Numbered from the stretch's first letter, positions 9,471 through 50,326 are shown. The stretch: DNA of 64,000 bases from Actinomycetota bacterium (GCA_002697535.1 NZWE01000008.1:5796-69795); one strand, 5' to 3'. The notes: generated by a model not told the origin, from the letters alone. Program-made: numbers and translations.

Positions 9471-9566
9471 AAATTCTTTACCCATATATATGCAGGATTA
9501 TGCTTATAAATCTATCGCGTATTTACTTGAACATGATAGATAAACTAAGTTACACTGAATTGACGT

Positions 9567-10370
9567 ATGAAATATAATAATGAAATTCATCAACTGGATG
9601 AACATAATGACGAATTATTAAACCTCTCAACAATGCTTAATAAAGCGATACAAACGTGTCGACGTCAAGAATTAAATTTAATTATTAAATTTTTAGAAAA
9701 CTTTTCAAACGATACAAATCAAGATCAAAGCTCTCTTTCAGAAAGTCCTGATTATATTAGTTATTCTTCAGATAAAGCTGAACATGAAAAGTTCAAAAGT
9801 ATCGTCACTGATTTAAGAACCTTATATGATACAGATCAACCAGCTGCACATCTTATCTTTTTTATGAGAAAAAATATCGATCAGCTAATGTCTCATATTC
9901 AAAATCTTGCTCTTACTACTCAAGAGTCTACAGAAATAATGGAACATAGTAATCCTCATGAGATATTTGAGGCTTATCTTAAAAACAATGATAGTCGTTA
10001 TACCAAAACTAAGCGCTTTATTACTGAAGAAATTTTTAATCTAACAGATCATTTTGAAGTTGAAAATTTTATTGATCACTTACGTTCTCAAACAAAAGAT
10101 ATTTCTCGTGCTACAGTCTACCGAACTATAAAACAATTATTAGATGCCAATCTATTACAAAAGATTACTACCTTAGATGGAAAAGTATTTTACGAGCATT
10201 CTAAAGCTCAACTTCAACATGCTCATATTATTTGTAATCAATGTGGAAAAATTACTGAAATGCATGATGATAACCTTCAGGATTTAATTACTAAGTATTG
10301 TGATACGATTGATTTTACAATGTCATATCAGTCTATCCATATTTATGGAACTTGCAAGAATTGCTCTTAA
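9567..10370 (+). CDS. Fur-family metalloregulator with a 124-aa N-terminal extension (or a canonical 143-aa Fur if translation starts at 9939)
   Basis: The C-terminal 140 aa are canonical Fur: wHTH ISRATVYRTIKQLLDANLL, HAHIICNQCGKI and a terminal CKNC (two CxxC pairs). The upstream 124 aa are in the same ORF and have no recognisable domain. Confidence 0.75.
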   Translation: MKYNNEIHQLDEHNDELLNLSTMLNKAIQTCRRQELNLIIKFLENFSNDTNQDQSSLSESPDYISYSSDKAEHEKFKSIVTDLRTLYDTDQPAAHLIFFMRKNIDQLMSHIQNLALTTQESTEIMEHSNPHEIFEAYLKNNDSRYTKTKRFITEEIFNLTDHFEVENFIDHLRSQTKDISRATVYRTIKQLLDANLLQKITTLDGKVFYEHSKAQLQHAHIICNQCGKITEMHDDNLQDLITKYCDTIDFTMSYQSIHIYGTCKNCS

Positions 10371-10444
10371 GCTAGGTCATTATATCCTACATACTATATG
10401 TAGCCCTCTGTTTATATGCGATATGTTTGTGGTATAAATAAACT

Positions 10445-10672
10445 ATGGAAACACTTATTGGTACGTTTATTATTATGTGCTTAGCTTTTTTAGGCTTTGG
10501 TGTTGGTGTTTTATTTTTTGGTAAAACAGCAAGCCATGATGCCTGTGGTAAGGTTCCTGAAATTGATCCTGAAGAGTGCTTATCTCAAAAAGCTGGTTTA
10601 TGTCCTTTTGAAGATGAATCAGGGGGTCTCAAAATGCAGCGTAAAGCGCGTGTTAATTACCCTTCATCATAA
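10445..10672 (+). CDS. small single-pass membrane protein with a Cys-containing tail, NqrM (DUF539)-like candidate
   Basis: 75 aa: one N-terminal TM helix (IGTFIIMCLAFLGFGVGVLFFG) followed by ACGK..10 aa..C..7 aa..C and a basic tail. This is the architecture of the Na+-NQR maturation factor NqrM. The Cys spacing is not the classical CxC. Confidence 0.35.
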   Translation: METLIGTFIIMCLAFLGFGVGVLFFGKTASHDACGKVPEIDPEECLSQKAGLCPFEDESGGLKMQRKARVNYPSS

Positions 10673-10765
10673 ATGTTATAAAGTTGGCATGTAGTATGTA
10701 GTTGATTTGGCGATACACCACTAGCATAATCGTTCCTATTTTATTATACCCTTTTTTATAAAAAC

Positions 10766-10999
10766 TTATCTAGGGTATGGTGTAGGGGCGTATGTAGGAA
10801 TAGGAATAGGGTTAGGATTAGGATCATGAAGGTTAGGAATAGGGTTAGGAATTGGTGTAGGCTTGTATGTAGGAGTATAATTAGGTTCTAATCCTCTTAT
10901 TTCTGCCTTTAATGCTTGCCGTCTTCTAACATTTTTCTGAATTATTGTTGCTGCTTTATTTCTCTTAGCTGCTTCATTATCTATATTTATATTCATCAT
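10766..10999 (-). CDS. small proline-rich protein with an IQ-like motif
   Basis: 77 aa. AATIIQKNVRRRQALK resembles the calmodulin-binding IQ motif (IQxxxRGxxxR). The C-terminal half is made of PNPIP/TPxP repeats. On the minus strand the ATG is preceded by TATAAT...AAAGGA. Confidence 0.5.
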   Translation of the reverse strand: MMNINIDNEAAKRNKAATIIQKNVRRRQALKAEIRGLEPNYTPTYKPTPIPNPIPNLHDPNPNPIPIPTYAPTPYPR

Positions 11000-11113
11000 T
11001 TTAATTTTTCCTTTCTTATTTATTATACCCTTTTTATGTAAAGGCTTTATCTAGTTATCGTGTTTTAGAGATAAAAAATTTTAGTTATTTTTTAAGCCCC
11101 CCTTTTTTTGTGT

Positions 11114-11131
11114 CATAAACGATCGTTTATG
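11114..11131. promoter_or_regulatory. perfect 18-bp palindrome CATAAACGATCGTTTATG in a divergent intergenic region (candidate operator)
   Basis: Read directly: cataaacga/tcgtttatg are exact reverse complements. Lies 88 bp upstream of the LMF-like gene ATG and 115 bp upstream of the IQ-motif ORF. Confidence 0.3.
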
Positions 11132-11218
11132 TTATAAAAATATGACAAACTTATTTTAGATATCGTCGCATATTATGAGCTAAATGGGAGAAAAACGTTT
11201 CTCAGGCTATAATAAAGT

Positions 11219-12706
11219 ATGTCTTGGCGTTATGTATTTTCTTTCTTTTCGTATCAACAAACCTCTCTTACTCATTTCTTATTTTTACGTTGTTTAGGCC
11301 TTATCTATTGTTTTGGATTTTTAGTTTTTGTTAACCAATGGGAAGGTTTACTTGGCTCTAATGGGCTTTCTCCTGCTTATTTATTTCTTGAATCTGTTAA
11401 AGAATCCATTTCTTTTTGGGATCTTCCTAGCATTTTTTGGCTTTATATATCGGATTCATTTTTATTTTGGTCAGGTTGTTTTGGGTTAGTCTTATCCGTT
11501 CTTGTTGTGTGTGGTCTCACCAATGCTATTGCCATGTTTATTTTATGGGCTCTCTATATGTCCATTATTCATATCGGCCAACAGTTTTATGGTTTTGGTT
11601 GGGAAACATTACTTTTAGAAACTGGATTTTTAGCTATTTTTTTGTGTCCTGTTTTTGACTGGAAACCTTTTTCTCCAAAAATTCCTCGCCCTACCCTTAT
11701 TTTTATTCTTATTTTATGGCTTTTATTTCGTAATATGTTTGGTGCTGGTTTAATTAAAATACGTGGAGATGCTGTTTGGAGCGACTTCACAGCGTTGATT
11801 TATCACTTTGAAACACAGCCCATTCCAAATCCACTCAGTTGGTTCTTTCATCATCTACCCATTCCTATTTTAAAATTTGGCGTTTTATTTAATCATTTTG
11901 CCGAACTAATTGTTCCTTTTTTCTTGTTTGGACCTCGTTTATGCCGTCATCTAGCTGCTCTTATTATTATTGTATTTCAATTCACCCTAATTTTAAGTGG
12001 TAATCTCTCTTGGTTAAATTGGCTTACCATTGTTCAATGTATTCCCGCTTTTGATGATAGCCGATTCTTTCTCTTACAAAAATTATCATTATTTAAAATA
12101 ATATCCTCATTGAAACGAACTAAATTACAGCTGATATCTCAGCTTAGCTTATGTGTGCTTATTGCAGGTTTAAGCATATTTCCTATTCATAATATGCTCA
12201 ATCCTCATCAAAAAATGAATGCCTCCTTTAATTCCCTTCATTTAGTGAATACCTATGGCGCCTTTGGCTCTGTTGGAAAAACACGATATCAACTTGTTTT
12301 TTATGGAACAACCGATACAACGATTACAGATACTACCATTTGGATCCCTTATCAATTTAAAGGACAACCTAGCTTAATCAATGATAGGCCTCCCTTTTTT
12401 TCACCCTATCATTACCGTCTGGATTGGCATCTTTGGTTTGCAGCTATGTCTGATTACCGTTATCACCCCTGGCTAGTTCATCTCGTTTATAAATTACTTC
12501 ATAATGACCCTATCATCAGTAATTTGATTAAACATAACCCTTTTTCATCATCACCCCCCACCTTTATTAAGGTTGATCGTTATGATTATCAGTTTACAGA
12601 CTCATTATCTAATGGCTGGTGGTCATCTACGTTTTTAAATAATTATTTACCGCCACTATCAAAAGATAATCCATCTTTGTTACGATTTGTAGAGCAATTG
12701 CAATAA
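11219..12706 (+). CDS. lipase maturation factor (LMF1/DUF1222) family membrane protein
   Basis: Polytopic protein with GWETLLLETGFLAIFL, YHFETQPIPNPLSWFFH, NTYGAFGSVGKTRYQ and YHYRLDWHLWFAAM, blocks I recognise as typical of the LMF family. Confidence 0.65.
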   Translation: MSWRYVFSFFSYQQTSLTHFLFLRCLGLIYCFGFLVFVNQWEGLLGSNGLSPAYLFLESVKESISFWDLPSIFWLYISDSFLFWSGCFGLVLSVLVVCGLTNAIAMFILWALYMSIIHIGQQFYGFGWETLLLETGFLAIFLCPVFDWKPFSPKIPRPTLIFILILWLLFRNMFGAGLIKIRGDAVWSDFTALIYHFETQPIPNPLSWFFHHLPIPILKFGVLFNHFAELIVPFFLFGPRLCRHLAALIIIVFQFTLILSGNLSWLNWLTIVQCIPAFDDSRFFLLQKLSLFKIISSLKRTKLQLISQLSLCVLIAGLSIFPIHNMLNPHQKMNASFNSLHLVNTYGAFGSVGKTRYQLVFYGTTDTTITDTTIWIPYQFKGQPSLINDRPPFFSPYHYRLDWHLWFAAMSDYRYHPWLVHLVYKLLHNDPIISNLIKHNPFSSSPPTFIKVDRYDYQFTDSLSNGWWSSTFLNNYLPPLSKDNPSLLRFVEQLQ

Positions 12707-15803: not shown

Positions 15804-16979
15804 TTAAAAATCAAGCGCTACAGATAGATATAACGCTTCTGCACTAAAATTATTTAATGGTTGATCATAATCTTCTAGTTGATACTCACACTTATAAACG
15901 ATAGATTTTATGGGTCTAAAATTAAAGCCAATCATGGCACGATGTGTAACATAATGAGTGTCTTTATCTGTGTTGACAGTTCCAATTCTTACAAAGGCTT
16001 TAATACTAGGAGATTCTAACATTGGTAAAAACCGTATTAATTCTTTTTGTAATACATCGGCTCTTACTTCTAAATAACTTCCACTCATCTTATTAGGAAC
16101 ATCTTCTATTCCATCTAAATTAACCATTGCAACTTCCGCTACTACTTCATACTGATCATATTTGTAGAAAACGTCCGCACCCAACATGAACATTCCATTT
16201 CTACCATTATCATCAAAATTTCCGTTATACATACTTGTCCCCACTTCTAAACCTTTCATTGGAGATGCCCATAACCTTGTAACAACTGCCTTATCTCCAT
16301 TATTATCTTGTTGAAAGCCAGGCCTGGCATTCCTTAAGCCATTTCTTGCATCTATCGATGAATCTAACCCATTAATTATATAAGCTTGATAATAAATCTC
16401 CATATTAGCGTATTCACTTGTCCCAATTAAGCCTTTGCCACTTTTAAACCAATTAGCATAGCGAGTTACACCATGTATACCAATACCACTATCTACCCAT
16501 GTAGAGGGGACAATATAGGTTAAATATAAAGGTCTTTGAGTTGTATCTCGATGGTTAGAATTATAGATACTGCTTGTACGACCAAATGGAACCATAAAAA
16601 TCCCTGTACGCTGTGTTAAACCATCATTAATTTTAAAATCAAACCAAGCTTGTTGCATTGTAATCTCACCGGTATTATTATTGTTTCCACCATTTACTTT
16701 ACCGCCATAATCTAAAGCAATTTCAGAATTTATCAGCAATCTTTTAGATAACCGTGATGACATTCCTAATACAAAATGATGCGCTATAAATGATGAGTCT
16801 AAAAGTTCTCTACCAAAAAACTCCGAATCAAAATAACCACTAATTACCCTACTTCCGCTACTACTATTATTTCTTATATCATTTTCTGCTGGCTGTGCAT
16901 AAGAGATTAAACTAATATTGATTAATATTGCTAGTATCCATACTATTTTTTTCCTACTTCTTATTACATATTCTATCAT
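15804..16979 (-). CDS. outer-membrane beta-barrel protein (porin-like)
   Basis: Signal peptide (ILAILINISLISYA/QP), alternating amphipathic strands rich in G/Y/N, and a C-terminal aromatic residue (...LSVALDF). Directly upstream of the P19-like gene. Confidence 0.45.
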   Translation of the reverse strand: MIEYVIRSRKKIVWILAILINISLISYAQPAENDIRNNSSSGSRVISGYFDSEFFGRELLDSSFIAHHFVLGMSSRLSKRLLINSEIALDYGGKVNGGNNNNTGEITMQQAWFDFKINDGLTQRTGIFMVPFGRTSSIYNSNHRDTTQRPLYLTYIVPSTWVDSGIGIHGVTRYANWFKSGKGLIGTSEYANMEIYYQAYIINGLDSSIDARNGLRNARPGFQQDNNGDKAVVTRLWASPMKGLEVGTSMYNGNFDDNGRNGMFMLGADVFYKYDQYEVVAEVAMVNLDGIEDVPNKMSGSYLEVRADVLQKELIRFLPMLESPSIKAFVRIGTVNTDKDTHYVTHRAMIGFNFRPIKSIVYKCEYQLEDYDQPLNNFSAEALYLSVALDF

Positions 16980-30291: not shown

Positions 30292-30780
30292 ATGAAAGTG
30301 CATCAGTTTGTATCGTTAATCTTATTACTCGTTTACCCCTCCCTCCTTATAGCGCAACCGATACAAGATATTAGTAGTGATGATCCTCATCATAGTATTA
30401 TTAAACAAGCTATTAATAATGGTTATTTATCTCTTTATAATGATAATTCTTTTAAACCTAACACCCCCTTATCAAGACGTGATGCCGTTATGATTATTCA
30501 TGAACTTGACAAAAAATTGTCAAATAATGTTAATCACTTAAAGGCTAATGATTTTCAAGAACTTACTGCCTTATCAAAATCATTTAAACAGCTCTATAAT
30601 TCAACTAACAACTCTTTAATATCGGTTCAAAATGATAATAAAATGTTGCGATATGAACACAAATTACTACTACATCAAATAACGGCACTACAACAATCTC
30701 AAAATAAGTACAAAAAAGAACGAAAGTTGCTTTTTGGGCTTATTGCCTTTTCGACACTTATTGGATTTCTATATCCATGA
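30292..30780 (+). CDS. SLH-domain / coiled-coil protein with a C-terminal hydrophobic anchor
   Basis: Signal peptide, then DDPHHSIIKQAINNGYLSLYNDNSFKPNTPLSRRDAVMIIHEL, which fits the S-layer-homology consensus (D..HWA...I.....G.....DG.F.P...ITR.E.A). A heptad-like region follows, and the protein ends in LLFGLIAFSTLIGFLYP. Confidence 0.6.
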   Translation: MKVHQFVSLILLLVYPSLLIAQPIQDISSDDPHHSIIKQAINNGYLSLYNDNSFKPNTPLSRRDAVMIIHELDKKLSNNVNHLKANDFQELTALSKSFKQLYNSTNNSLISVQNDNKMLRYEHKLLLHQITALQQSQNKYKKERKLLFGLIAFSTLIGFLYP

Positions 30781-39968: not shown

Positions 39969-40595
39969 TTAAAAATCAAAGTTTTCAACTTCAGTTTCTT
40001 GCTCTTGATTTGTCTCTGCTTGCTTTTTTTCTTCTTCAATCTCTTCTGCTGTTTTTAATACAATCAAATCAAATAATCGTTTAAATATACGTTCAGCCAT
40101 CGGCGTAGCTTCTACTTTACATGTTTGATACGCTGCTATTTTTTCGTCTGCCATATGTTCTTGGATAGCGTTTCCCAATTCTTCTTCAACATATTTAAAG
40201 AAAAATGCAATCATCTGGTTTTCTTGAGAACTCAAATGTGATGCTATGGTTTCTAATGACCGATAATTTTCCGGAAAGAGCTTCTCTTCTGGGATCACTT
40301 CTTCTTCCTCAGGTTCTTCTTCTCTATCTTCCATTTCTTCTTCTTTTTCTTCTTCTTCTTCTGAAAATAAATCGTCTTCACCACTATCTGATATTTCAAA
40401 TTCTTTTTCGCTAACTCCTTCTAATACTAATGTTAAAAACTCTCCCATTTCTTCATCATTAATCGTTGGTACATCATCTAAAGTTGAGGTTAATATGGTA
40501 GCACTTTCCTCTGATAAATGTTTTAAAACATCCGTACTCTTTTCTTCAATTAAACTAATTAATAATTGAGATTTTTGCTTTCCTGTTAAGTTCAT
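39969..40595 (-). CDS. FliG-like protein, truncated (N-terminal domain plus an acidic insert; no C-terminal torque domain)
   Basis: LTGKQKSQLLISLIEEKSTDVLKHLSEE matches the FliG N-domain signature (LTGxEKAAILLxxLGEExAAxVxKxL). Followed by an E-rich tract (EEEEEKEEEMEDREEEPEEEE). Total 208 aa, compared with about 330 for FliG. Start overlaps the fliF stop. Confidence 0.6.
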   Translation of the reverse strand: MNLTGKQKSQLLISLIEEKSTDVLKHLSEESATILTSTLDDVPTINDEEMGEFLTLVLEGVSEKEFEISDSGEDDLFSEEEEEKEEEMEDREEEPEEEEVIPEEKLFPENYRSLETIASHLSSQENQMIAFFFKYVEEELGNAIQEHMADEKIAAYQTCKVEATPMAERIFKRLFDLIVLKTAEEIEEEKKQAETNQEQETEVENFDF

Positions 40596-42220
40596 GATGC
40601 AACCTCTTCTAGCACAAAATCTTCTTCTAATTCAGTTTGAGCTTCTTCAGTTTGCTCATTGCTATCGTCCTCTTTTTCCTTTAACCAATCTTCCATAATA
40701 GCCGCTAATTTTTCTGGAAATTCGACTGCTAATTCTCTTAATTTCTCTAATTTTGTATCATTATCAAGATCTTCGTCTTCTTCTAAATCACCATCATCCA
40801 GATTATCAAATTCATCTTCATTGATATTTTCAACAACTTTATTTTCTTCACGTCGTGCTTTTCGTATAAATCGTATTACAAATATAATGATGGCAATACC
40901 CACTATAATGCTTGCTGCTAACAAAAGATAATCTAATAATCCTTGTCTAGTATGCTTGGCTATTAATGCTTTTTTCTCGCTCTCTGTATAAATAGGAAAC
41001 TCAGCAATACTTAATTGTATGGAATCTCTACCTCTGATATACCCTACTGATCCAGCTACTGTTTGAAATACCTGCTGCTTAAAGGCTTTATCTACAAAAA
41101 TATCATCATTTAATCCATCAATTACAATACTTATGGTTTGTCTTTTTATATCAACTATATTTCCATTTTCAAGTGGTCCTAAATCTGATGTTACCTCAAC
41201 TTTAAACGATGCAATTGGCATAATTCCAAATAATTGTTTTTCTACTTTTTGTTTTAACGTATTCTCAAAATTCCACTTTATTTCAAACCATTCTTGTATA
41301 CGATCATAATTAGGGATTATAGGACTTCCCATTGCCTCTTCTCGACTAATGGCTGCTAAAATAGGGGCTCGGCTTTTTTCTTCTGCTACATATGTTCCGG
41401 CTCGTTTTGATGCTAATCTTTCAAAAAGACTATCCGATAATAGATTTCCCTCTGTATCAATAACGGATACATTTTCTACTTGCAAATTTTCAACTGCATT
41501 TGACACTAATTGAATAATACTAAAGACAATTTCATCCGTTATCTCACTTCCTTGAATAATTCGTATAATAATCGATGATGTCACAGGCGGTTGAGTTACT
41601 GTAAATAAACGCTGTTCTGGTAATACAATTTGTACTTTTGCTGATTCAATAATATCTAATTGTGTAATTGCTTTTTCTAATTCGCCTGACAAGGCTCTTA
41701 AAAACCGAATCCGTTTATCAAATTCTGTTACGCCTAAGGTTTGAGCATCATCTAATAATTCATACCCACTCTTTGCTTTTCCTGATGGAATTCCTTTAAT
41801 GGCCAACAAATTTCTTGCTAGTTCCGCTTCATCTTCTGCTACTAAAATTGTAAATTTTTGACCATTTTGTTCGGTTTTAAATTGTATTTCTGCTAAACTA
41901 ATTTCTTTTAAAATTTTGCTCGTATCGCCACCATCTAACTGACTAAATAATTTTACATACTTTATTTTTTTTCTACTTTTCTTACTTTTATCTACTTTAT
42001 TTTTTGATACCATTATATTTTTGTTACTATGCTTACTAACGGATTTATTTGACTCATTACCTCTTCCTAACATTGTTAGCAATATCACAATAATAATAAC
42101 GCCTGCTATTAATCCCCCAATAATGAATTGTCTATTTGACTGTTTTGGAGGCAATGGCTCTGGTTGGGAAACTGGTTCCTCTAATGTGGGTTCTTCTTGA
42201 ATTATTTCTTCTTCAGCCAT
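40592..42220 (-). CDS. fliF: flagellar MS-ring protein FliF
   Basis: N-terminal TM helix, YscJ/FliF-type periplasmic domains (YVKLFSQLDGGDTSKILKEIS ... ILVAEDEAELARNLLAIKGIP), a second TM helix and an acidic C-terminal FliG-binding tail. Confidence 0.9.
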   Translation of the reverse strand: MAEEEIIQEEPTLEEPVSQPEPLPPKQSNRQFIIGGLIAGVIIIVILLTMLGRGNESNKSVSKHSNKNIMVSKNKVDKSKKSRKKIKYVKLFSQLDGGDTSKILKEISLAEIQFKTEQNGQKFTILVAEDEAELARNLLAIKGIPSGKAKSGYELLDDAQTLGVTEFDKRIRFLRALSGELEKAITQLDIIESAKVQIVLPEQRLFTVTQPPVTSSIIIRIIQGSEITDEIVFSIIQLVSNAVENLQVENVSVIDTEGNLLSDSLFERLASKRAGTYVAEEKSRAPILAAISREEAMGSPIIPNYDRIQEWFEIKWNFENTLKQKVEKQLFGIMPIASFKVEVTSDLGPLENGNIVDIKRQTISIVIDGLNDDIFVDKAFKQQVFQTVAGSVGYIRGRDSIQLSIAEFPIYTESEKKALIAKHTRQGLLDYLLLAASIIVGIAIIIFVIRFIRKARREENKVVENINEDEFDNLDDGDLEEDEDLDNDTKLEKLRELAVEFPEKLAAIMEDWLKEKEDDSNEQTEEAQTELEEDFVLEEVAS

Positions 42221-42309
42221 ATTTAATAATTGTTATATGATATATATGTTTATTTTACATTAGACTTACTACATAAGTCACGTAAATAGACTGATTTATT
42301 ATTAATTTT

Positions 42310-42873
42310 TTAAATAGCTAACTGCGTTATTTCTTTAAATGTTTGCGTAGCAGATGATAAAACGGTTGTTGCAAATGATACGGCTAAATTTAACTTCATT
42401 GTCTCAACACTCACTTCATCTAACGAAACTTTTCCTTCAATATATTGCTCTGTTAAATCATTTACTCGATATTCCATTGTACTAATACTTTCTAGCACCT
42501 CTATTGATTTATCTAATAACATTTGAAATGGTGTTACTTCTACACGATTCGTACTCAGATAAACATTTTCATCATCTTGTCCTTGAACATTTTGACGTCT
42601 ATTTTGATTATTTTGAACTTCACGAAATATGTTTTCTATTTCTTCCGGTGCTAATGCCTGCGCTAACAGCTCTCTATTTTCTTCTTCTGATACAATTCTT
42701 GGTTTTTGATTAAAGTTATAATCAATTCCATCGACATCATTTGGATTAACCCCATTTAATGCTTCATCAAAAAAGTTTTGAAATGGTACCTTTGGCATCA
42801 TTTCTTTATTAACAGCATTTGCCTTTTGAGGTTTCATTTGCATCATATCCAAAGGGTCTAATTTCTTATTCAT
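42310..42873 (-). CDS. fliE: FliE-like basal-body protein with a long N-terminal extension
   Basis: The C-terminal 75 aa (…FQMLLDKSIEVL…VSVETMKLNLAVSFATTVLSSATQTFKEITQLAI) align to the FliE pattern. At 187 aa it is much longer than the usual ~100. Canonical position after flgC. Confidence 0.65.
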   Translation of the reverse strand: MNKKLDPLDMMQMKPQKANAVNKEMMPKVPFQNFFDEALNGVNPNDVDGIDYNFNQKPRIVSEEENRELLAQALAPEEIENIFREVQNNQNRRQNVQGQDDENVYLSTNRVEVTPFQMLLDKSIEVLESISTMEYRVNDLTEQYIEGKVSLDEVSVETMKLNLAVSFATTVLSSATQTFKEITQLAI

Positions 42874-43319
42874 TTTAATAATTCCATTGTAGACTGGTAC
42901 ATCGCTTTTGTCAGTTTAAATGCATTAATATTTGCTTCATACATAGCCTCTGTGTGCTTTAGTGTTACCATTTCATTTGGCATATTAACATTCGGCAAAT
43001 AAAAATATCCATCTTCATCGGACTGTGGCGCCGCTGGATCAAAGTATCGACTAAATGGCTCTGTACTTCGTTCAATATCAACTACCTTTACACCAATATC
43101 GGAGGCTTCTAATACTAAATATTTTTTTTGGTAGGGCAATCCTGTTTCTTCATCTTTTAAAGTCATTAAGTTGGCAACATTTTCTGCCGTCATTGTCATT
43201 TTCATCCGCTGAGAAACAATACCACTCATATTGATCTGGAATGCATCTTCTAATGTACTTAACTGTGCGGCTATTGGTGATAGTAATATTAAACTGATAA
43301 TGATTACTTTAATCAACAT
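42870..43319 (-). CDS. flgC: flagellar proximal rod protein FlgC (with a hydrophobic N-terminal extension)
   Basis: QINMSGIVSQRMKMTMTAENVANLMT (rod N-motif) and C-terminal VNMPNEMVTLKHTEAMYEANINAFK. ATG at 43319, 2 nt after the flgB TAG (the track start is a GTG at 43322). Confidence 0.85.
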   Translation of the reverse strand: MLIKVIIISLILLSPIAAQLSTLEDAFQINMSGIVSQRMKMTMTAENVANLMTLKDEETGLPYQKKYLVLEASDIGVKVVDIERSTEPFSRYFDPAAPQSDEDGYFYLPNVNMPNEMVTLKHTEAMYEANINAFKLTKAMYQSTMELLK

Positions 43320-43321
43320 CA

Positions 43322-43708
43322 CTAGCGTTTTCCCATTGTAGCTATCTGCCGATAGGTATCAAACCGTTTTTTATATAACGTCAAGTAACTTGCTTGTAAA
43401 TTTCTGTTTTTTGCCATGCTCGCTGACATATGCTCTAATAATACTTTTTTTCTTAACTCACTATTATTTGGAATAATTTGATTTAATTCTTCCTGGTCTT
43501 CTGGATACAGAACCGGCTCAAAGCCAGGAGTGGTAATATTAGCAATATTATACGAAAAAAGCGCATGCTTTTTTGTTGCTTTATAAATTGCTTTTTCTAA
43601 TTTTTGATCAGCTGGATACAATGCCAATTTACCTTCATTTTGCTGTGCCCATATCGATCCACTTAAATATATAAGTATACTTATGGCTATTAATTGATAT
43701 TTATTCAT
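43322..43708 (-). CDS. flgB: flagellar proximal rod protein FlgB (with a hydrophobic N-terminal extension)
   Basis: Rod motif SYNIANITTPGFEP. Position upstream of flgC. ATG overlaps the fliA stop by 8 nt. Confidence 0.8.
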   Translation of the reverse strand: MNKYQLIAISILIYLSGSIWAQQNEGKLALYPADQKLEKAIYKATKKHALFSYNIANITTPGFEPVLYPEDQEELNQIIPNNSELRKKVLLEHMSASMAKNRNLQASYLTLYKKRFDTYRQIATMGKR

Positions 43709-44423
43709 TCTGTTTCAATCCTTCTAATCGATGTTTTAATCTATCTAAAACATTCATATGAATACGACATATTCGACTTTTAGATAACTTTAAATGCTTA
43801 GCAATTTCTACTTGCTTAAGTCCATGTATATAAAATAATTCTATAACATCTTTGTCGGGATGTTCTAGATCATAAATCTCTTTCCATAAAAAATCATAAT
43901 TTTCATCCACAACTTCTATCTCAGGGTCTTTTGTTCCTTTACTTTCAGATATATTTTGCTTCATATCGCCTGATATATAATGAACAAACGTCGCTGATTC
44001 AACTGCCTCATTAACCTTTTCTTTAGGCTTACTATTAGACTCATTTATAGTATCTTCGATAAACTCTGATAATGTTTCTTGTAATTTTTTTCTTCTGTCA
44101 CGGTACTCTTGAGGAATTCGTGAATTCCATTCATTACGAATTGAATCCAATATTTCACCTCTAATACGATAATAAGCATAGGTTTGAAATTTAGTTTTCA
44201 AGTCTTTCTTAAACCCTTTTTTAGCTTTTAATAATCCTTCAACTCCCCAACTAATTAAATCTCCATAATCAATACAACTAGGAACTTTCCCTGCATGTAA
44301 AATTTTTGATGCAATGTTTTTTATTAATGGCATATGCTCATTAATAAACTCTTCAGAATGCCCTCTATCTTTTCGAGCATCATTATATTGTAGTTTAGTT
44401 ATATCAACGTTTTTCTTTGACAT
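43701..44423 (-). CDS. fliA: RNA polymerase sigma factor, FliA/sigma-28 family
   Basis: Region 2 FQTYAYYRIRGEILDSIR and region 4 HTH LKQVEIAKHLKLSKSRICRIHMNVLDRLK. Embedded in the flagellar operon. Confidence 0.8.
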   Translation of the reverse strand: MSKKNVDITKLQYNDARKDRGHSEEFINEHMPLIKNIASKILHAGKVPSCIDYGDLISWGVEGLLKAKKGFKKDLKTKFQTYAYYRIRGEILDSIRNEWNSRIPQEYRDRRKKLQETLSEFIEDTINESNSKPKEKVNEAVESATFVHYISGDMKQNISESKGTKDPEIEVVDENYDFLWKEIYDLEHPDKDVIELFYIHGLKQVEIAKHLKLSKSRICRIHMNVLDRLKHRLEGLKQNE

Positions 44424-44426
44424 TTT

Positions 44427-44759
44427 TTATTCCCTAAAATATTCATCTAAGTTTAATAAATCTTGATCTGCTAAATATTTAGATAGTTGCCTTGCATAAA
44501 TTACATTCATTAATTCATTTGATTGTTTTGTATCATAAATGGCATCCTCTTCAATTTCAATAACACTTGTTGATTTAAATAACGGTTGTACAAATATTTG
44601 TTGAATAAATAATGCTTGCATTTTTTTCATAGCATCTTCCTCACTGCCAATTTCATAATTTGGATTTAATAACTGATAATAACTCATATCAGGCATCTGT
44701 CCTACTACACTAGCTGTGAATATTAACATCAAACTTATTATATAAAAAATTGTCTTCAT
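44427..44759 (-). CDS. rod-binding protein (FlgJ N-terminal-domain-like)
   Basis: 110 aa located directly after flgI. AMKKMQALFIQQIFVQPLFK ... MNVIYARQLSKYLA resembles the Rod_binding domain. There is no muramidase domain. Confidence 0.45.
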   Translation of the reverse strand: MKTIFYIISLMLIFTASVVGQMPDMSYYQLLNPNYEIGSEEDAMKKMQALFIQQIFVQPLFKSTSVIEIEEDAIYDTKQSNELMNVIYARQLSKYLADQDLLNLDEYFRE

Positions 44760-45826
44760 AATATTTCTAAATCAGCTACAAGAGCTCCTGACTCTTTTAA
44801 TGCTTGGATAATATTAATTAATTCTTTAGGTGTTACACCTATTTGGTTTAATGAATTCACTAAATTTGATAAGGTATCAGCTGCCTCTAAATAAACTAAC
44901 GGTTTTTTTGATTCATTTATTGTAATAGGATCTTCTTGTGCCCCAAATAACCCTCCGGCATCATTATTAATTTTTATTGAAACGCCTCCATGAGTAATTG
45001 CAACAGGAAATAATTTAACATTTTCTCCAATAATGATCGTTCCTGTTTTTGAATTCACAACAATTCGTGATGATACATCAGGTGTAATTTCTATATTCTC
45101 AATTTCAGATATAGCTGTTATTAAATCGGAAGACTTTAAATCTTCTAATGGAATTTTAATGGTATTGCCATCTATTGCTTTGGCGCCCTTATAGCCTTTC
45201 TCTTGTAATGCTTTCATCGCTTTTGCTACTGTAAAGAAATTTGGTCTATCTAAAACCATTGTAATATTATGTTGATCTGTAAACGTTACTGGCACCTCAG
45301 CTTCTACTATAGCTCCATTTGGTATTGAGCCTACCGTTGCTTGATTTCTATAAAGCTGTGTTGTCGCAGATACTTCACTTGCTCCATCAATGACTATATT
45401 TCCTTGCGCTACAGCATATGTTTTCATGTCAGGTCCCATCATTGGGGTCATAATTAATGTTCCCCCAATCAAAGAACTTGCATCTCCTAATGCTGATACC
45501 GTTACTGATATACGTTGACCCTTTTTTAAAAATGATGGTAAATTGGCTGTTACTAAAACAGAGGCTGCATTTCTAGCATTTAAATTTACGCCACTTATTG
45601 AAACTCCCATTTTTGATAATAAGTTTCTTAAAGCATTATTTGTTAAACCGGCAGCTCTAGAATCACCACTTCCTCTTAGCCCCACAACAATCCCATACCC
45701 TGCCAATTGATTGTCTCTTGATTCAATTAATTTCCCAATATCTTTTAATCGTACAGTATTAGACTGAGAATAAGATAGACTCCCTAACAAACTTAACATT
45801 ATTAAAATAGATGTTAAAATTTTCAT
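44756..45826 (-). CDS. flgI: flagellar P-ring protein FlgI
   Basis: Signal peptide followed by RLKDIGKLIESRDNQLAGYGIVVGLRGSGDS, with FlgI-like sequence conserved along the full length. Confidence 0.95.
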   Translation of the reverse strand: MKILTSILIMLSLLGSLSYSQSNTVRLKDIGKLIESRDNQLAGYGIVVGLRGSGDSRAAGLTNNALRNLLSKMGVSISGVNLNARNAASVLVTANLPSFLKKGQRISVTVSALGDASSLIGGTLIMTPMMGPDMKTYAVAQGNIVIDGASEVSATTQLYRNQATVGSIPNGAIVEAEVPVTFTDQHNITMVLDRPNFFTVAKAMKALQEKGYKGAKAIDGNTIKIPLEDLKSSDLITAISEIENIEITPDVSSRIVVNSKTGTIIIGENVKLFPVAITHGGVSIKINNDAGGLFGAQEDPITINESKKPLVYLEAADTLSNLVNSLNQIGVTPKELINIIQALKESGALVADLEIL

Positions 45827-45827
45827 A

Positions 45828-46436
45828 CTAAAACAACCAATTAAATACTTTCGTCATAATACCAGGAGATTGCTTTGAAGCTACTACCCCACTTCCATGT
45901 ACTGAAATTTCAGCTTTAGCAACTTGATATGAATAGACTGAATTCTTTGGAGAAATATCTTGAGGCCGAATAACACCTGCTACTCGAATTGTCTCCAACT
46001 CATCATTGACTTTTACTTTATGAATTCCTTCAACATATAAATTTCCATTATCTAATATTTCAGTGACTACTGATGAAACGACCGCCTTAACCTGACTTCT
46101 ACGCGAGGTTTGTCCCGATCCTTCATACTTATCATCACCATTTAACCCATATTGTCTTTTTTGATTTAACGTTTCATTTCCTAATAAATTTCCTACTTGC
46201 TCCCAATTATTTTGAATTGAAGCGCCTAACCGCGATTCTCTTTCTGTACTGGTTGATGCTTGCTGTGCCGCTGATGTTGATTCTGACACATAAATCGTAA
46301 TGATATCACCAACTCGGATTAGCCGTCTGTTAACACCATAAAACGGTGTTTTCGCATTATCAAATAACGAATCTGCGACAACCTCCATAGGCCATAGCAA
46401 ACTAATTAGAACTAATAAGAATATGTTTTTTATCAA
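45828..46436 (-). CDS. flgH: flagellar L-ring protein FlgH
   Basis: SLFDN ... RVGDIITIYVSESTSA ... LYVEGIHKVKVNDELETIRVAGVIRPQDI, typical FlgH. The signal peptide has no lipobox Cys. Confidence 0.9.
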   Translation of the reverse strand: MIKNIFLLVLISLLWPMEVVADSLFDNAKTPFYGVNRRLIRVGDIITIYVSESTSAAQQASTSTERESRLGASIQNNWEQVGNLLGNETLNQKRQYGLNGDDKYEGSGQTSRRSQVKAVVSSVVTEILDNGNLYVEGIHKVKVNDELETIRVAGVIRPQDISPKNSVYSYQVAKAEISVHGSGVVASKQSPGIMTKVFNWLF

Positions 46437-47121
46437 TTACTTTTCCTCTTAATATTTTTTTTGTTTCTGTCTTCATTCGAATCATATCACCTATCATCCC
46501 TGAATCTAATGCTGTAACATCCGATTTAATCTCAAAGCCTGATGATTTGATAACTAATTTTACATGTTCTCCTTTTTGCACATCAGGAACAAGTTCAATC
46601 CATCGATCTGAAAATGCAATTCCTTTTATCATCGATCGTTTTGTTTGCTTTCCTATAATAATATCTTTATTAAAAATATAATCTTCGGATCGTGATGTTA
46701 ACTTAATTCTTTTTTGAGTAATATCATTATTAGAAATAATATCATTTGTTTTTATTTTTCTATTAGATACATAAACATCTCCATAGACGCTGGTTTCTAA
46801 AGCACATTTTTCTGTTTTAATAATTGTATTTTCTTCTGATAAAAATGCCGTATCTAATATAATCTTTCCCATTAAGGTTTGTGGTTTTGCTAAATCTACA
46901 AAGATATAAAAGACATCTTTAGAAATATCATTAAAAATTTCTGAGTTTTTTATCTCGACATTCACGTCTGGATTTTTTACATCTCCCATTTGTCCTAGTA
47001 TTTGATTTTCAATTTCAGTCTCTAATATTGTACTAGAAAAATTAGCAACACTATATTGCTTTGCAGATAGATTAACTGAAAAAAATACTGCTAATAAAAT
47101 TACCCAAAACACTCTCAACAT
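46402..47121 (-). CDS. flgA: flagellar P-ring assembly chaperone FlgA
   Basis: Signal peptide and a C-terminal SAF/FlgA pattern GEHVKLVIKSSGFEIKSDVTALDSGMIGDMIRMK. Position between flgG and flgH. Confidence 0.75.
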   Translation of the reverse strand: MLRVFWVILLAVFFSVNLSAKQYSVANFSSTILETEIENQILGQMGDVKNPDVNVEIKNSEIFNDISKDVFYIFVDLAKPQTLMGKIILDTAFLSEENTIIKTEKCALETSVYGDVYVSNRKIKTNDIISNNDITQKRIKLTSRSEDYIFNKDIIIGKQTKRSMIKGIAFSDRWIELVPDVQKGEHVKLVIKSSGFEIKSDVTALDSGMIGDMIRMKTETKKILRGKVIDKKHILISSN

Positions 47122-47124
47122 TAT

Positions 47125-47928
47125 TTATTTTCCTATATCACTCGCTGCCTTTAACATTGCATCTGCTGATTTAATGGTCGAGTTTACTAACTCAAATGTT
47201 CGCTGACATAACAACATATTCATCATTTCTTCAATGATATTAACATTTGAAAACTCTAATGCTCTTTGCTTTACCATCCCAACACCATTTTCACCAGGAA
47301 TTGTTAACTCTGGATCGCCTGATGCAGCTGTTGCTCTAAATAAATTTTGACCAACGTCTTTTAATCCTCCTGCATTTGGAAAATTCACTAAATAAACCTG
47401 ACCTATTTCTGTTGGCTGGACAGTATTTGCTGTTTGAGCAAACACCTCACCTGCTTCATTAATAATAATTTCAGTCGTATTAGCTGGTATTGTAATAGCT
47501 GGATCAAGTGGATGCCCATTTGGATTTAATACATTACCTTCTGCATCTGCATGCAGGTTTCCAGCCCTACTAAACCCATAGGTTCCATCTGGCATTAAAA
47601 ATTGTAAAAATCCTTTTCCTTCTATAGCAACATCCAGTTGTTGATTTGTCATTTCAATTGATCCGGTTGTAAAGTCTTTTGTTACATCAACAATACGTAT
47701 TCCTTGACCATACTCTAAGTATTTCTTACGTTTTCGTCCTGCACCCGGTGATACCTCATCAAACTCTGAATAGGCTCTTTCTAATACTAATGGAAATAAA
47801 CTCTCCATTTCCATACGCTTCTTTTTATATCCAACCGTTTGCGCATTCGCAATATTGTTTGCAATAACCTGCATTTTTCTTTCATAAGAAAAATATGCTG
47901 ATTTTGCCATAAATAACTGTGATAACAT
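47125..47928 (-). CDS. flgG: flagellar distal rod protein FlgG
   Basis: N-terminus MQVIANNIANAQTVGYKK and C-terminus LEFSNVNIIEEMMNMLLCQRTFELVNSTIKSAD. The N-terminus is canonical, with no hydrophobic extension. Confidence 0.9.
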   Translation of the reverse strand: MLSQLFMAKSAYFSYERKMQVIANNIANAQTVGYKKKRMEMESLFPLVLERAYSEFDEVSPGAGRKRKKYLEYGQGIRIVDVTKDFTTGSIEMTNQQLDVAIEGKGFLQFLMPDGTYGFSRAGNLHADAEGNVLNPNGHPLDPAITIPANTTEIIINEAGEVFAQTANTVQPTEIGQVYLVNFPNAGGLKDVGQNLFRATAASGDPELTIPGENGVGMVKQRALEFSNVNIIEEMMNMLLCQRTFELVNSTIKSADAMLKAASDIGK

Positions 47929-47951
47929 GTTGCTTTCCTCCTTTTATGTTT

Positions 47952-48773
47952 TTATGGACTCGATAATGTTGCCGCTGTATTTAACGCTCTATTCATTAAA
48001 TGAGCTGTTTTAACACTGGCATCATATGCATTTTTTGCCATTAATATATCCCCAGTAATCCCCTTTAAGACATTATTTTGCTCTAAAGCTCCCTGAACAA
48101 CCGCATAATGCTCTGGGCCTTCTTCTACGGGAACATCTTTTGTCAAAATAAAATAAGATCCATTTAATGATTCAAAGGACTGCATTGCCGCAAATGTTTT
48201 GAATACTACAATTTTCATACTTGAAACAGGCTGTCCATCAACATAAATAAGCCCTGATCGTGATACTAATATATCTTCACCTTCCGGCAAAATTATTTCA
48301 CCTTCTTCTCCTAATACTGGATAATTACCTGATAATGTTACCAATCTTCTCTTTGAATCTAATAAAAAACGGCCATCTCTTGTAAATGCAATCGTACCTG
48401 GTAACTGCACCACAAAAAAACCTCTACTATTAGCATCAATATAAAAATCTAGCTCTTTATTGGTTTCAATCATCGGACCAGCTCTCCATCTAAAAAAAGG
48501 CAAATAATCTAAATCATAGCCGTCTTCTGTCTTTTTTCTAGAATTATAAACACCTGTCTCAATAAATCCTGGCGTTCCAACATTTATCGTATAAAACATA
48601 AAGTTTGTATAATGCACCTGAAACATTCTCATAGCTTCCAATGTTGTTGACACTCCTTCATCTTGCACCTCACCAAAATTGGTATATCCATATAATGATG
48701 ATGTAACACTTAAAATCATTAGTAATATACCCATCGTGACATTTCTATAAACATTAAGTTGTTTTTTTATCAT
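47952..48773 (-). CDS. flgF: flagellar rod protein, FlgF-like (with a hydrophobic N-terminal extension)
   Basis: Rod motif TINVGTPGF and C-terminus VVQGALEQNNV ... AKNAYDASVKTAHLMN. Upstream of flgG. Confidence 0.7.
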   Translation of the reverse strand: MIKKQLNVYRNVTMGILLMILSVTSSLYGYTNFGEVQDEGVSTTLEAMRMFQVHYTNFMFYTINVGTPGFIETGVYNSRKKTEDGYDLDYLPFFRWRAGPMIETNKELDFYIDANSRGFFVVQLPGTIAFTRDGRFLLDSKRRLVTLSGNYPVLGEEGEIILPEGEDILVSRSGLIYVDGQPVSSMKIVVFKTFAAMQSFESLNGSYFILTKDVPVEEGPEHYAVVQGALEQNNVLKGITGDILMAKNAYDASVKTAHLMNRALNTAATLSSP

Positions 48774-49135
48774 TTTCTCTTCTTTCTTTTTAATTTTTTC
48801 TTTTTTGCCAGTCTATCTAATCGATACACAAACGATAATACTTCTGCCACCATATTATATAAATTAGGCGGTATTTCAGAATTTATAGCTAACTTTGATA
48901 ACAACTCCACTAAAGAAGAATCTTCATAAAATGGAACCTTATTATCTTCGGCAACCTTAAGTATCTTTTCCGCAATTTGACCTTTTCCAAACCCTGTAAT
49001 TTTTGGTGCCTTACTATTTTTCGAATCATACTTTAAAGCAATAGCTTTTAAATTATGCTTATTTTTAACATCAAGTTGATGTATATTTCGTTTTAATTTT
49101 ATATTTTTTGGCTTATCACTTTTTTTTGCATTCAT
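48770..49135 (-). CDS. stand-alone FlhB C-terminal-domain protein (YlqH / EscU-YscU-HrcU family fragment)
   Basis: AIALKYDSKNSKAPKITGFGKGQIAEKILKVAEDNKVPFYEDSSLVELL ... VAEVLSFVYRL aligns to the part of FlhB_C after the NPTH cleavage site. No TM domain. Confidence 0.75.
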   Translation of the reverse strand: MNAKKSDKPKNIKLKRNIHQLDVKNKHNLKAIALKYDSKNSKAPKITGFGKGQIAEKILKVAEDNKVPFYEDSSLVELLSKLAINSEIPPNLYNMVAEVLSFVYRLDRLAKKKKLKRKKRK

Positions 49136-49138
49136 AGT

Positions 49139-50326
49139 TTATACTTCCGTACTAATTCGTTTCATATTATTTAAATTAAATGTTGGTAATAATAACTTTT
49201 CGATATTGATGATCTTTTTTAATGATTGCACTTGAGTTACTTCATAATTTAATTCTTCCATAGATTTTTTTAGTTCAGGAACTTCATCTAAAACAAATTT
49301 TTGAGTCAATTCATTACTGCTATAAATCTTATATGCCATTTTTTTATCATTAATTTCAATAATGATCGTTAAGTCCCCTAAATCTGATGTTTCACACTTA
49401 ATCACAATTGTTGTGTTATTAGGATTTACTTTTCTCTTATTCTTAGGATCCTTACTTACCATAACCTCAATATCTTTCAATGCTTTTGCCATAGGATTTG
49501 GAATCATCCAATAATGAAAAAACTCCTCCGAAATTTGTTGATTTGAAGGACTTTTAGATAAAATTAATTGTGTCAATAAAACATCATGAAAGGCTGACGA
49601 ATCTTTTTCAACACTTTTAATTATTTTTTTTAAATTATCGGCTATTAAGTTATTAGATGATGATAACTTTTTATTAATCCCTTTTAAAAAATCTTGTAAA
49701 TATCTTAAATCTTGCACTAAGTCAGATTGCTTGTTGATCAACCCCTTAATATCTAAATTATCAGCATGCTTTTTCATGGTCTTTGTATCTTCTAAAAAGT
49801 CATCTAAAAACCCCGCAACCCCAGCGATCAATGACGGATCTAAAAATGCGCTAAAACCAGGCAATCCATTTTTTAATCCCTGCAACCCCTGAGACAATCT
49901 TGATAAACTTCCTGATAACTGAACATTATGCGATAAAAACTTTGAAATCAAATCCACAGCCTTAGCATTACCATCAAGTCCTTTTGAATAAGCAACGACA
50001 CTTGCCTCCAACTTGTTCCCCTTCTTACTCCCCTTAACCGCCTGCTCTATTAAATCAAAGGCTTCTGGAGATGCTTCGACTCCATACAATAACATAGTTG
50101 TTAAAATCTGCTTATTTTCAGGTGTAACCGCTTTTTGCAAATTTAATAAGGCCTGACTAATATCTTGTGAATTTAATATACGAACATACTCTGGTGTTTT
50201 TTGTAACGGCTGATCAGCACTCTTAATATTTGATTGATCACTATTTATATCCTGAATACTTTTAGGTAACGATTTTGAGTCGGTTGTCTGCTGAGGCTTA
50301 TTAACATCTCCACGTATATTTTGCAT
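49139..50326 (-). CDS. FliK-like hook-length-control-type protein (tentative)
   Basis: The C-terminal block IKCETSDLGDLTIIIEINDKKMAYKIYSSNELTQKFV...LKKSMEELNYEV resembles the Flg_hook domain (LxPxxLGxVxVxL...). Pairing with a FlhB_C-only gene is common in other genomes. Confidence 0.45.
   Translation of the reverse strand: MQNIRGDVNKPQQTTDSKSLPKSIQDINSDQSNIKSADQPLQKTPEYVRILNSQDISQALLNLQKAVTPENKQILTTMLLYGVEASPEAFDLIEQAVKGSKKGNKLEASVVAYSKGLDGNAKAVDLISKFLSHNVQLSGSLSRLSQGLQGLKNGLPGFSAFLDPSLIAGVAGFLDDFLEDTKTMKKHADNLDIKGLINKQSDLVQDLRYLQDFLKGINKKLSSSNNLIADNLKKIIKSVEKDSSAFHDVLLTQLILSKSPSNQQISEEFFHYWMIPNPMAKALKDIEVMVSKDPKNKRKVNPNNTTIVIKCETSDLGDLTIIIEINDKKMAYKIYSSNELTQKFVLDEVPELKKSMEELNYEVTQVQSLKKIINIEKLLLPTFNLNNMKRISTEV

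Follow-up and report, generated by a model that had tools for sequence, protein, structure and literature searches.

Predicted Sec-type signal peptides on three rod proteins and a FlgJ-like protein in a flagellar gene cluster of marine Margulisbacteria

In the accepted account of flagellar assembly, all axial parts (rod, hook, filament and caps) are exported in unfolded form along the type III channel of the flagellum itself and polymerise at the distal tip. The basal-body-only systems of insect endosymbionts, which are reduced gene sets in non-motile bacteria, keep rod proteins of the type III type. We know of no axial protein that uses the Sec route, and of no reported change of export signal on the axial proteins of the endosymbiont basal bodies. 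We analysed a 64,000-nucleotide stretch of DNA deposited as Actinomycetota (GCA_002697535.1, NZWE01000008.1:5796-69795; hereafter the window), which carries a flagellar gene cluster. Four of its open reading frames (ORFs), those for the proximal rod proteins FlgB, FlgC and FlgF-like and for a FlgJ-N-like (rod-binding-like) protein, begin with signal-peptide-like N-termini, just as a first-pass annotation of the window had read them. Its proposal that these are Sec-type signal peptides is supported by the evolution of the orthologs, by the position of the leaders as clean additions and by their likeness to those of FlgI, FlgH and FlgA.

In the standard account, FliE, FlgB, FlgC, FlgF and FlgG enter the periplasm by way of the flagellum's type III secretion system (fT3SS) (PMC8517470). 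SltF of Rhodobacter sphaeroides and BB0259 of Borrelia burgdorferi are Sec-exported peptidoglycan enzymes that partner a single-domain FlgJ, and BB0259 requires its signal sequence (PMC8517470). In those systems the functions of FlgJ are split and a rod-assembly helper travels by Sec; the FlgJ-like protein of the window is likewise single-domain. FlgJ and all rod proteins pass through the fT3SS there; in the cluster studied here, leaders are present on three rod proteins and on the FlgJ-N-like protein.

The locus shares with the Salmonella and Escherichia coli rod its gene families and their order, the rod motifs (an N-terminal helix of the ANNxAN..TPGF type and Flg_bbr_C at the C-terminus), FliF, FlgA, FlgH, FlgI and FliA. 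It differs in the Sec-type leaders ahead of the canonical N-terminus, in a FliE of almost twice the usual length and in a truncated FliG. FlgA, FlgH and FlgI, encoded in the same operon, have leaders of the same kind as the four proteins, with the same length and cut-site types; they are, however, ring and chaperone proteins around the rod, unlike the axial FlgB, FlgC and FlgF. With the insect-endosymbiont basal bodies the marine Margulisbacteria share a partial gene set (FliM, FliH/I/J, FlgK/L and FliD undetected; odd FliG length). A full-text literature search, in which most subscription journals fall outside coverage, returned no description of axial rod proteins with Sec-type leaders. The first-pass annotation knew of no description of such an assembly route for flagella. 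The sequences suggest a basal body whose axial structure has in part changed its export signal, a situation apparently not described before.

All four leaders follow one plan: a basic n-region, an uncharged hydrophobic core and a small residue at the predicted cut (A or G, then Q or Y). Lysine or arginine occurs within the first 2-5 residues of the leaders (residue 10 in the FlgF-like protein), and the charge of the n-region has a median of +1 to +2.5. After the leader, FlgB has its rod motif SYNIANITTPGF at residues 52-63. The N-terminus of FlgC reads (M)MLIKVIIISLILLSPIAA/QL (a slash marks the predicted cut throughout), with AENVAN at residue 46, and the FlgF-like protein has TINVGTPGF at residue 62. 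The predicted mature N-terminal peptides are (pyro)QQNEGK for FlgB and (pyro)QLSTLEDAFQINMSGIVSQR, YTNFGEVQDEGVSTTLEAMR and (pyro)QMPDMSYYQLLNPNYEIGSEEDAMK for the others. A lipoprotein or twin-arginine translocation signal was ruled out for the four window proteins, which have no lipobox cysteine and no twin-arginine.

Hydrophobicity was expressed as H12, the maximum 12-residue Kyte-Doolittle mean within the first 40 residues, with a threshold of at least 2.0. A cut-site heuristic gave false positives on FliG-like proteins, and plain hydrophobicity with inspection was used instead. H12 medians of the four proteins (2.5-2.7) equalled the values of FlgI, FlgH and FlgA. The hydrophobic cores, below the usual length of a transmembrane helix, had median lengths of 16-17 residues, against 14-17 in those three Sec-dependent proteins, by what is a crude measure. 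Hydrophobic N-termini occurred in 28 of the 54 ORFs of the window, an envelope-rich region, so this proportion is of no use as a chance estimate. A rod-type type III signal (hydrophilic, disordered, without a hydrophobic core) was not seen at the N-termini of the four proteins. FlgG (MLSQLFMAKSAYFSYERKMQVIANNIAN) and FliE, which the first-pass annotation had described as ordinary at the N-terminus, indeed have no hydrophobic leader, and neither has the FliK-like protein.

Orthologous clusters were collected as genome contigs (L001 and L002), through look-ups of FlgC homologs (L014, L015, L067 and L069) and by a metagenome scan (L017-L037 and L040). Synteny was the same throughout this set, often with the same housekeeping neighbours. 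Leaders were found across dozens of these clusters, down to about 50% identity. As the first-pass annotation had proposed to check, the extensions are conserved, and what is kept is a physico-chemical feature. In Margulis-type clusters H12 reached the threshold in 26/26 FlgC, 13/13 FlgF-like, 16/17 FlgJ-like and 17/22 FlgB proteins, and in none of the FlgG (0/14), FliE (0/23), FliK-like (0/8), FlhB-C-like (0/10) and FliA (0/20) proteins. Chance does not account for this distribution.

The sequence of the leaders is far more variable than that of the proteins behind them. Among 37 diverse FlgC sequences, mean pairwise identity was 20% in the leader versus 72% in the mature part, and the leader consisted of 65% hydrophobic residues, 0.3% D/E and 7.4% K/R. 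For FlgB the identity was 0.20 in the leader versus 0.43 in the mature part. The 120 FlgC homologs listed had variable hydrophobic leaders of about 20 residues, mostly with A/Q ends and directly followed by a conserved mature start, TLEDAMxINTSG...AENVAN; the exceptions were N-terminally short or truncated gene calls. Position -1 was mostly A, otherwise G or S, position +1 was mostly Q and position -3 was S, L, I, V or T, although alignment shifts blur some of these columns. Cut sites in orthologs included SYA/QQ, TVA/QN, LLA/QK, IFG/QN, LSA/QA and VFA/QQ for FlgB and LYG/YT, IVG/YT, LSS/YE, TWG/YD and LGA/QT for the FlgF-like protein. The mature start QMPDM of the FlgJ-like protein was conserved behind a leader that was wholly different in orthologs (for example MTIKHSIMWMIWVGCLWLLPIQLFA/QMPDM). 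These patterns support leaders that are genuine, translated and selectively maintained, and that evolve as signal peptides do, with variable sequence, fixed physico-chemistry and AxA-type cut sites that have small residues at -3 and -1.

Alignments to known rod proteins begin right behind the predicted cut. Residues 27-150 of the window FlgC aligned to positions 3-137 of model TIGR01395; position 26 of the FlgC profile corresponded to residue 5 of Salmonella FlgC, and position 40 of the FlgB profile to residue 13 of Salmonella FlgB. The mature proteins would therefore be of about canonical length (within about 0-7 residues). The canonical FlgC of outgroup loci opens directly with the MxxF.I..SG helix. 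For FlgB and FlgC the predicted leader is thus cleanly added ahead of a rod protein of full length.

A start-codon artefact, in which translation would begin downstream and the hydrophobic stretch would be untranslated upstream sequence, is very improbable. Gene callers do disagree on the start of the FlgJ-like protein (100 or 110 amino acids), and for FlgC some entries in the databases start at an internal Met within the leader. Against this, the frame is open and the segment hydrophobic, basic and acid-free across dozens of diverged orthologs of four genes, and none of the internal start codons is conserved across the orthologs. At the base composition of the window, 20 random codons are free of stops with a chance of about 16% per gene per lineage; because four genes stay open in dozens of lineages, untranslated DNA cannot explain the leaders. 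The long-form starts also overlap or abut the preceding stops. On the sequence we confirmed the junctions that the first-pass annotation had cited: flgB overlaps fliA by 8 nucleotides (43701-43708), 2 nucleotides separate the flgB stop from the flgC ATG, and the upstream FlhB-C-like gene shares 4 nucleotides with flgF-like (48770-48773). A GTG of flgC overlaps the flgB stop by 1 nucleotide. The same annotation had stated that the FlgF-like protein lacks a Met between the hydrophobic segment and TINVGTPGF. This was an error, as M48, M50 and M59 are present; initiation at any of them would cut off most of the conserved N-terminal helix. FlgB has no Met ahead of its rod motif, and the position of Met32 in FlgC is M, L, T, V or I in orthologs. 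The downstream starts at Leu28 of FlgB and Met32 of FlgC, which the first-pass annotation had named as able to overturn its reading, and those at M48 and M50 of the FlgF-like protein, were rejected, being not conserved as start codons and truncating the conserved helix.

We consider it likely that the four leaders are translated, cleavable signal peptides of the Sec/signal peptidase I pathway and that Sec delivers FlgB, FlgC and the FlgF-like and FlgJ-N-like proteins to the periplasm. In such a route the four proteins would cross the inner membrane via the Sec translocon. Signal peptidase I would cut after the A or G at -1, so that the proteins begin with Gln or Tyr (+1) and are set free in the periplasm, and the mature proteins would attach to the FliF/FliE base from that side. 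The flagellar type III gate would still serve FliE, FlgG and any part further out. In Salmonella basal-body structures each protein of the proximal rod is needed in just a few copies and assembly takes place in a cavity open to the periplasm, and for these reasons supply by diffusion is physically plausible. The sequences show that the leaders exist, keep their physico-chemical character, have the anatomy of signal peptides and precede full-length rod proteins; that the four proteins depend on Sec, are cleaved and enter a rod is what we infer.

The leaders might instead be uncleaved signal anchors that tether the four proteins to the inner membrane, where they would form no free rod but a static scaffold in the periplasm. 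With an H12 of 2.3-3.1 the segments have the hydrophobicity needed for insertion, and with a truncated FliG, and with FliM and FliH/I/J undetected in the marine single-cell genomes, a non-rotating structure is conceivable. We regard anchoring as quite unlikely, in that the cores are about as long as in the Sec-dependent FlgI, FlgH and FlgA and the small-residue sites are conserved at a fixed distance from a conserved mature start. The rod order in Salmonella is FliE-FlgB-FlgC-FlgF. Only some 6-10 residues separate the core from the first conserved helix, and a tethered FlgC or FlgF could presumably not reach its layer above the membrane. Cleavage is the more probable of the two. Persistence of type III export, with the hydrophobic N-terminus serving either as a form of the type III signal peculiar to the lineage or as a device that concentrates substrates at the membrane near the gate, is also unlikely. 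It would fit the presence of gate genes in the lineage, the position of fliQ next to leader-bearing flgB and flgC in alphaproteobacterial loci and a complete fliH-fliI-fliJ set beside a leader-bearing flgC in L068; as FliH/I/J are undetected in the marine genomes, delivery to the gate may differ there. It does not fit the full n-h-c anatomy including the -3/-1 site, for whose upkeep a type III signal would give no cause, the match of the leaders to those of FlgI, FlgH and FlgA, or the unchanged N-termini of the other substrates of the operon, FlgG, FliE and the FliK-like protein.

Several points count against delivery of the four proteins by Sec. FliE and FlgG are leaderless, so that the rod would be built from two routes, which is without precedent and would call for some means of ordering and capping subunits in the periplasm. 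The residue at -3 is frequently large and aliphatic (L, I or V), which is acceptable to signal peptidase I but not ideal. Our scores are simple hydrophobicity and -3/-1 heuristics, and the cut-site heuristic mis-scored some cases. The identities of FlgB and of the FlgJ-like protein rest on weak sequence scores together with synteny. In addition, the type III gate is kept in the lineage (PMC6349859 Supplementary Data 2), so these proteins may still leave by type III export.

The gate is recorded in a sister single-cell genome. In AA1A, a Marinamargulisbacteria single-cell genome, FlhA, FlhB, FliO, FliP, FliQ, FliR and FliN were detected, as were FliF, FlgC, FlgF, FlgE, FlgH, FlgI and FlgA (Matheus Carnevali et al. 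2019, PMC6349859 Supplementary Data 2). The components undetected in the three marine genomes AA1A, AG2A and AG3B were FliH, FliI, FliJ, FliM, FlgD, FlgK and FlgL and likewise FliD, FlgM, FlgN, FlhF, FlhG and FliL (PMC6349859). The first-pass annotation had proposed a search for flhA, fliPQR, full-length flhB and fliI; of that set, FlhA, FlhB and FliP/Q/R are on record in AA1A, and FliI was undetected. None of flhA, the transmembrane part of flhB, fliPQR and fliI was found in the whole window or within 10 kb on either side of any related locus. Loss of type III export in the lineage was set aside, since FlhA, FlhB and FliO/P/Q/R are recorded in AA1A. The FlgC of AA1A (P0091) carries a leader, and because this genome has both, gate and leader-bearing rod proteins coexist.

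The same table flags FliG for its length and gives FlgB, FliE and FliK as absent in the marine genomes (PMC6349859 Supplementary Data 2). These absences need caution, because FlgB, FliE and FliK exist in diverged form in the cluster of the window and the genomes are incomplete. Published flagellar inventories for the lineage are incomplete, because standard models miss FlgB and FliE and gene calls sometimes clip leaders.

The first approximately 55 residues of the truncated FliG match the FliG N-domain; behind them come an acidic linker and a short helical part, and the FliG_C torque domain is missing. The truncated form is kept across the clade (L001, L014, L015, L067 and L069; orthologs of 163-270 amino acids), and so is its arrangement with FliF. 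The lack of a torque domain across the clade suggests that the structure may not rotate. It is conceivable, though we hold it as a tentative idea, that marine Margulisbacteria have no swimming flagellum but a reduced, probably non-rotating trans-envelope machine derived from the flagellum and assembled by a hybrid of Sec and type III export. Such a machine would comprise the MS ring, rod and P/L rings and would lack the FliG torque domain, FliM, FliH/I/J, the hook-filament junction and the cap. The proximal rod and the rod cap would arrive via Sec from the periplasm, and only FliE and FlgG via the type III gate.

The rod proteins could be identified to different degrees. The assignment of FlgC is secure by its sequence matches: it scored 97.6 bits (E=6.7e-28) against TIGR01395, just under the cut-off of 102.1, and matched FlgC chains in PDB with E=4e-20 and 8e-17. 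The best NCBIfam match of the FlgF-like protein was flgF (TIGR02490; E=1.1e-19, 70.8 bits against a cut-off of 178.5), and its ortholog profile matched FlgG in PDB (1e-18) slightly better than FlgF (2e-14). It is certainly a rod protein of the FlgF/FlgG family, and the name FlgF comes from its position before flgG. FlgB matched TIGR01396 far below the cut-off (E=0.0025). Its ortholog profile matched Salmonella FlgB (7bin_Q) with E=3e-4, aligning positions 40-77 to residues 13-52, the N-terminal helix only; the SYNIANxTTPGF motif and the place upstream of flgC-fliE agree with FlgB. The FlgJ-like protein of the window had no Pfam match, and a PDB profile search with it found no match. Two of 10 orthologs matched PF10135 below threshold (E=1.7e-4 and 9.4e-3), and the L067 ortholog has a faint precomputed match to the same family. 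Comparison with canonical FlgJ-N from outgroup loci by hhalign gave E=8e-5 with a probability of 61%, and the position after flgI fits FlgJ. The protein is probably a single-domain FlgJ that consists of the rod-binding part only.

Leader-bearing FlgC extends beyond the marine clade. When 1.84 billion representatives were searched exhaustively with a profile, FlgC with a leader made up about 25 of the best 150 matches. All four proteins have a leader in the marine clade and in L069. In a high-G+C Candidatus Margulisiibacteriota metagenome-assembled genome (MAG; L067), leaders are present on FlgC and the FlgF-like protein only; FlgB is leaderless and short (98 amino acids), the FlgJ-like protein is leaderless and FliE is of normal length. 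L036 has a leader on FlgC and none on FlgB. Because the edge lineage L067 has only the FlgC and FlgF-like leaders, acquisition within the phylum looks stepwise.

Outside the phylum, an unrelated alphaproteobacterial clade, uncultured and in part marine, has flgB-flgC-fliE-fliQ operons in which both FlgB and FlgC bear leaders (L066:5506-6434, L070:1793-2701). In the alphaproteobacterial set, 28 of the 119 FlgC examined had leaders, and the nearest canonical relatives were Rhodospirillales-type FlgC of 135 amino acids. The alphaproteobacterial leaders are of independent origin. L068 has a leader on FlgC only (7708-8184), in an otherwise canonical flgB-flgC-fliE-fliF-fliG-fliH-fliI-fliJ operon with a FliG of 344 amino acids; this FlgC is a singleton. 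The unrelated FlgC of L064 (2053-2514) has a lipobox-like LLGC. The predicted innovation is recurrent and centred on the proximal rod.

If leaders conserved across the phylum do send the four proteins through Sec, subunits pooled in the periplasm can supply the building of the proximal rod, and the independent recurrence on FlgB and FlgC in the alphaproteobacterial clade strengthens this idea. Delivery by Sec would bear on assembly order, on type III substrate specificity and on the evolution of flagellum-derived machines. The tentatively proposed non-rotating machine would be a naturally occurring Sec/type III hybrid and would show a new manner of building an axial structure.

FliE of the marine clade has a hydrophilic N-terminal extension of about 85 amino acids, which seems to repeat a PFQxFFDEAL-type motif. 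FliE is of normal length (102-110 amino acids) in L067 (6633-6944) and L036, both with a leaderless FlgB, and in L037, where FlgB has a leader; because of L037, FliE length tracks the leaders only loosely. In L067, secA lies directly downstream of the flagellar cluster (9002-11485). Relatives also occur in eukaryote-derived data, such as P0115 (EukProt record COSAG01...), and L015/L032 come from an assembly of more than 1 million contigs (GCA_013572995.1, contig JACCDX011185063.1). Some members of the lineage may live with eukaryotic hosts.

In Bacteroidetes, a rule of Gln after signal peptide cleavage has been described. The frequent A/Q ends of the predicted signal peptides here recall that rule and hint at pyroglutamate N-termini. 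The same style of cut occurs in other predicted secreted proteins of the window, as SYA/QP at 15804-16979 (-) and LIA/QP at 30292-30780 (+). FlgH of the clade is without a lipobox cysteine, and its leader in the window ends VVA/DSLF. It thus resembles an ordinary substrate of signal peptidase I and not, as in enterobacteria, a lipoprotein.

The window is identical in sequence to contig PAVJ01000013.1 of a Tara Oceans Marinamargulisbacteria MAG (GCA_002713025.1), and FlgC homologs from single-cell genomes bear the name Candidatus Marinamargulisbacteria. Its G+C content is about 31%. The flagellar genes form one tight cluster at 39969-50326 with every gene on the minus strand, listed in the order of transcription in Table 1. 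No further flagellar genes were found elsewhere in the window; the flanks of the cluster and the rest of the window hold housekeeping and envelope genes (LepA, pabB, lnt, LptF/G, Na+-NQR and TonB-ExbBD).

Table 1. Genes of the flagellar cluster in order of transcription, followed by the predicted signal peptides (slash, predicted cut; aa, amino acids).
Feature	Position in window	Strand	Basis
FliK-like, no leader	49139-50326	-	Pfam Flg_hook, weak
FlhB C-terminal-domain-only protein (FlhB-C-like), no leader	48770-49135	-	Pfam Bac_export_2, covering just model positions 262-335
FlgF-like proximal rod protein, 273 aa, signal-peptide-like leader	47952-48773	-	Pfam FlgE/F/G D1 domain E=4e-10
FlgG distal rod protein, canonical N-terminus, internal negative control	47125-47928	-	NCBIfam flgG E=2.9e-74
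FlgA, Sec-dependent, positive control	46402-47121	-	Pfam ChapFlgA
FlgH, Sec-dependent, positive control	45828-46436	-	Pfam FlgH
FlgI, Sec-dependent, positive control	44756-45826	-	Pfam FlgI
FlgJ-N-like (rod-binding-like), 110 aa, signal-peptide-like leader	44427-44759	-	Position between flgI and fliA
FliA-like sigma factor	43701-44423	-	Pfam Sigma70 r2 and r4
FlgB proximal rod protein, 128 aa, signal-peptide-like leader	43322-43708	-	Weak NCBIfam FlgB E=0.0025; flgB-flgC-fliE synteny
FlgC proximal rod protein, 149/150 aa, signal-peptide-like leader	42870-43322	-	NCBIfam FlgC E=6.7e-28
FliE, 187 aa, long hydrophilic N-terminal extension, no leader	42310-42873	-	Pfam FliE E=1.2e-4
FliF MS-ring protein	40592-42220	-	NCBIfam fliF E=7.8e-37
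Truncated FliG-N-like protein	39969-40595	-	fliG model covers residues 2-55 only
Predicted signal peptide of FlgF-like, aa 1-29, MIKKQLNVYRNVTMGILLMILSVTSSLYG/YT	48687-48773	-	Read from sequence
Predicted signal peptide of FlgJ-N-like, aa 1-20, MKTIFYIISLMLIFTASVVG/QM	44700-44759	-	Read from sequence
Predicted signal peptide of FlgB, aa 1-21, MNKYQLIAISILIYLSGSIWA/QQ	43646-43708	-	Read from sequence
Predicted signal peptide of FlgC, aa 1-19 of GTG form, MMLIKVIIISLILLSPIAA/QL	43266-43322	-	Read from sequence

The FlhB-C-like protein, at 121 amino acids, is the post-cleavage part of FlhB only, without the NPTH site or the membrane domain. The pair of FliK-like and FlhB-C-like genes is absent upstream of the cluster in the distant relative L015. 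Outside the cluster, the large ORFs at 5822-8146 (+) and 57124-60690 (+), of 774 and 1188 amino acids, had no Pfam or precomputed family match. A Fur-family regulator at 9567-10370 (+) carries an N-terminal extension of 140 amino acids, and the ORF at 11219-12706 (+) encodes lipase maturation factor (LMF1) domains, which are better known from eukaryotes.

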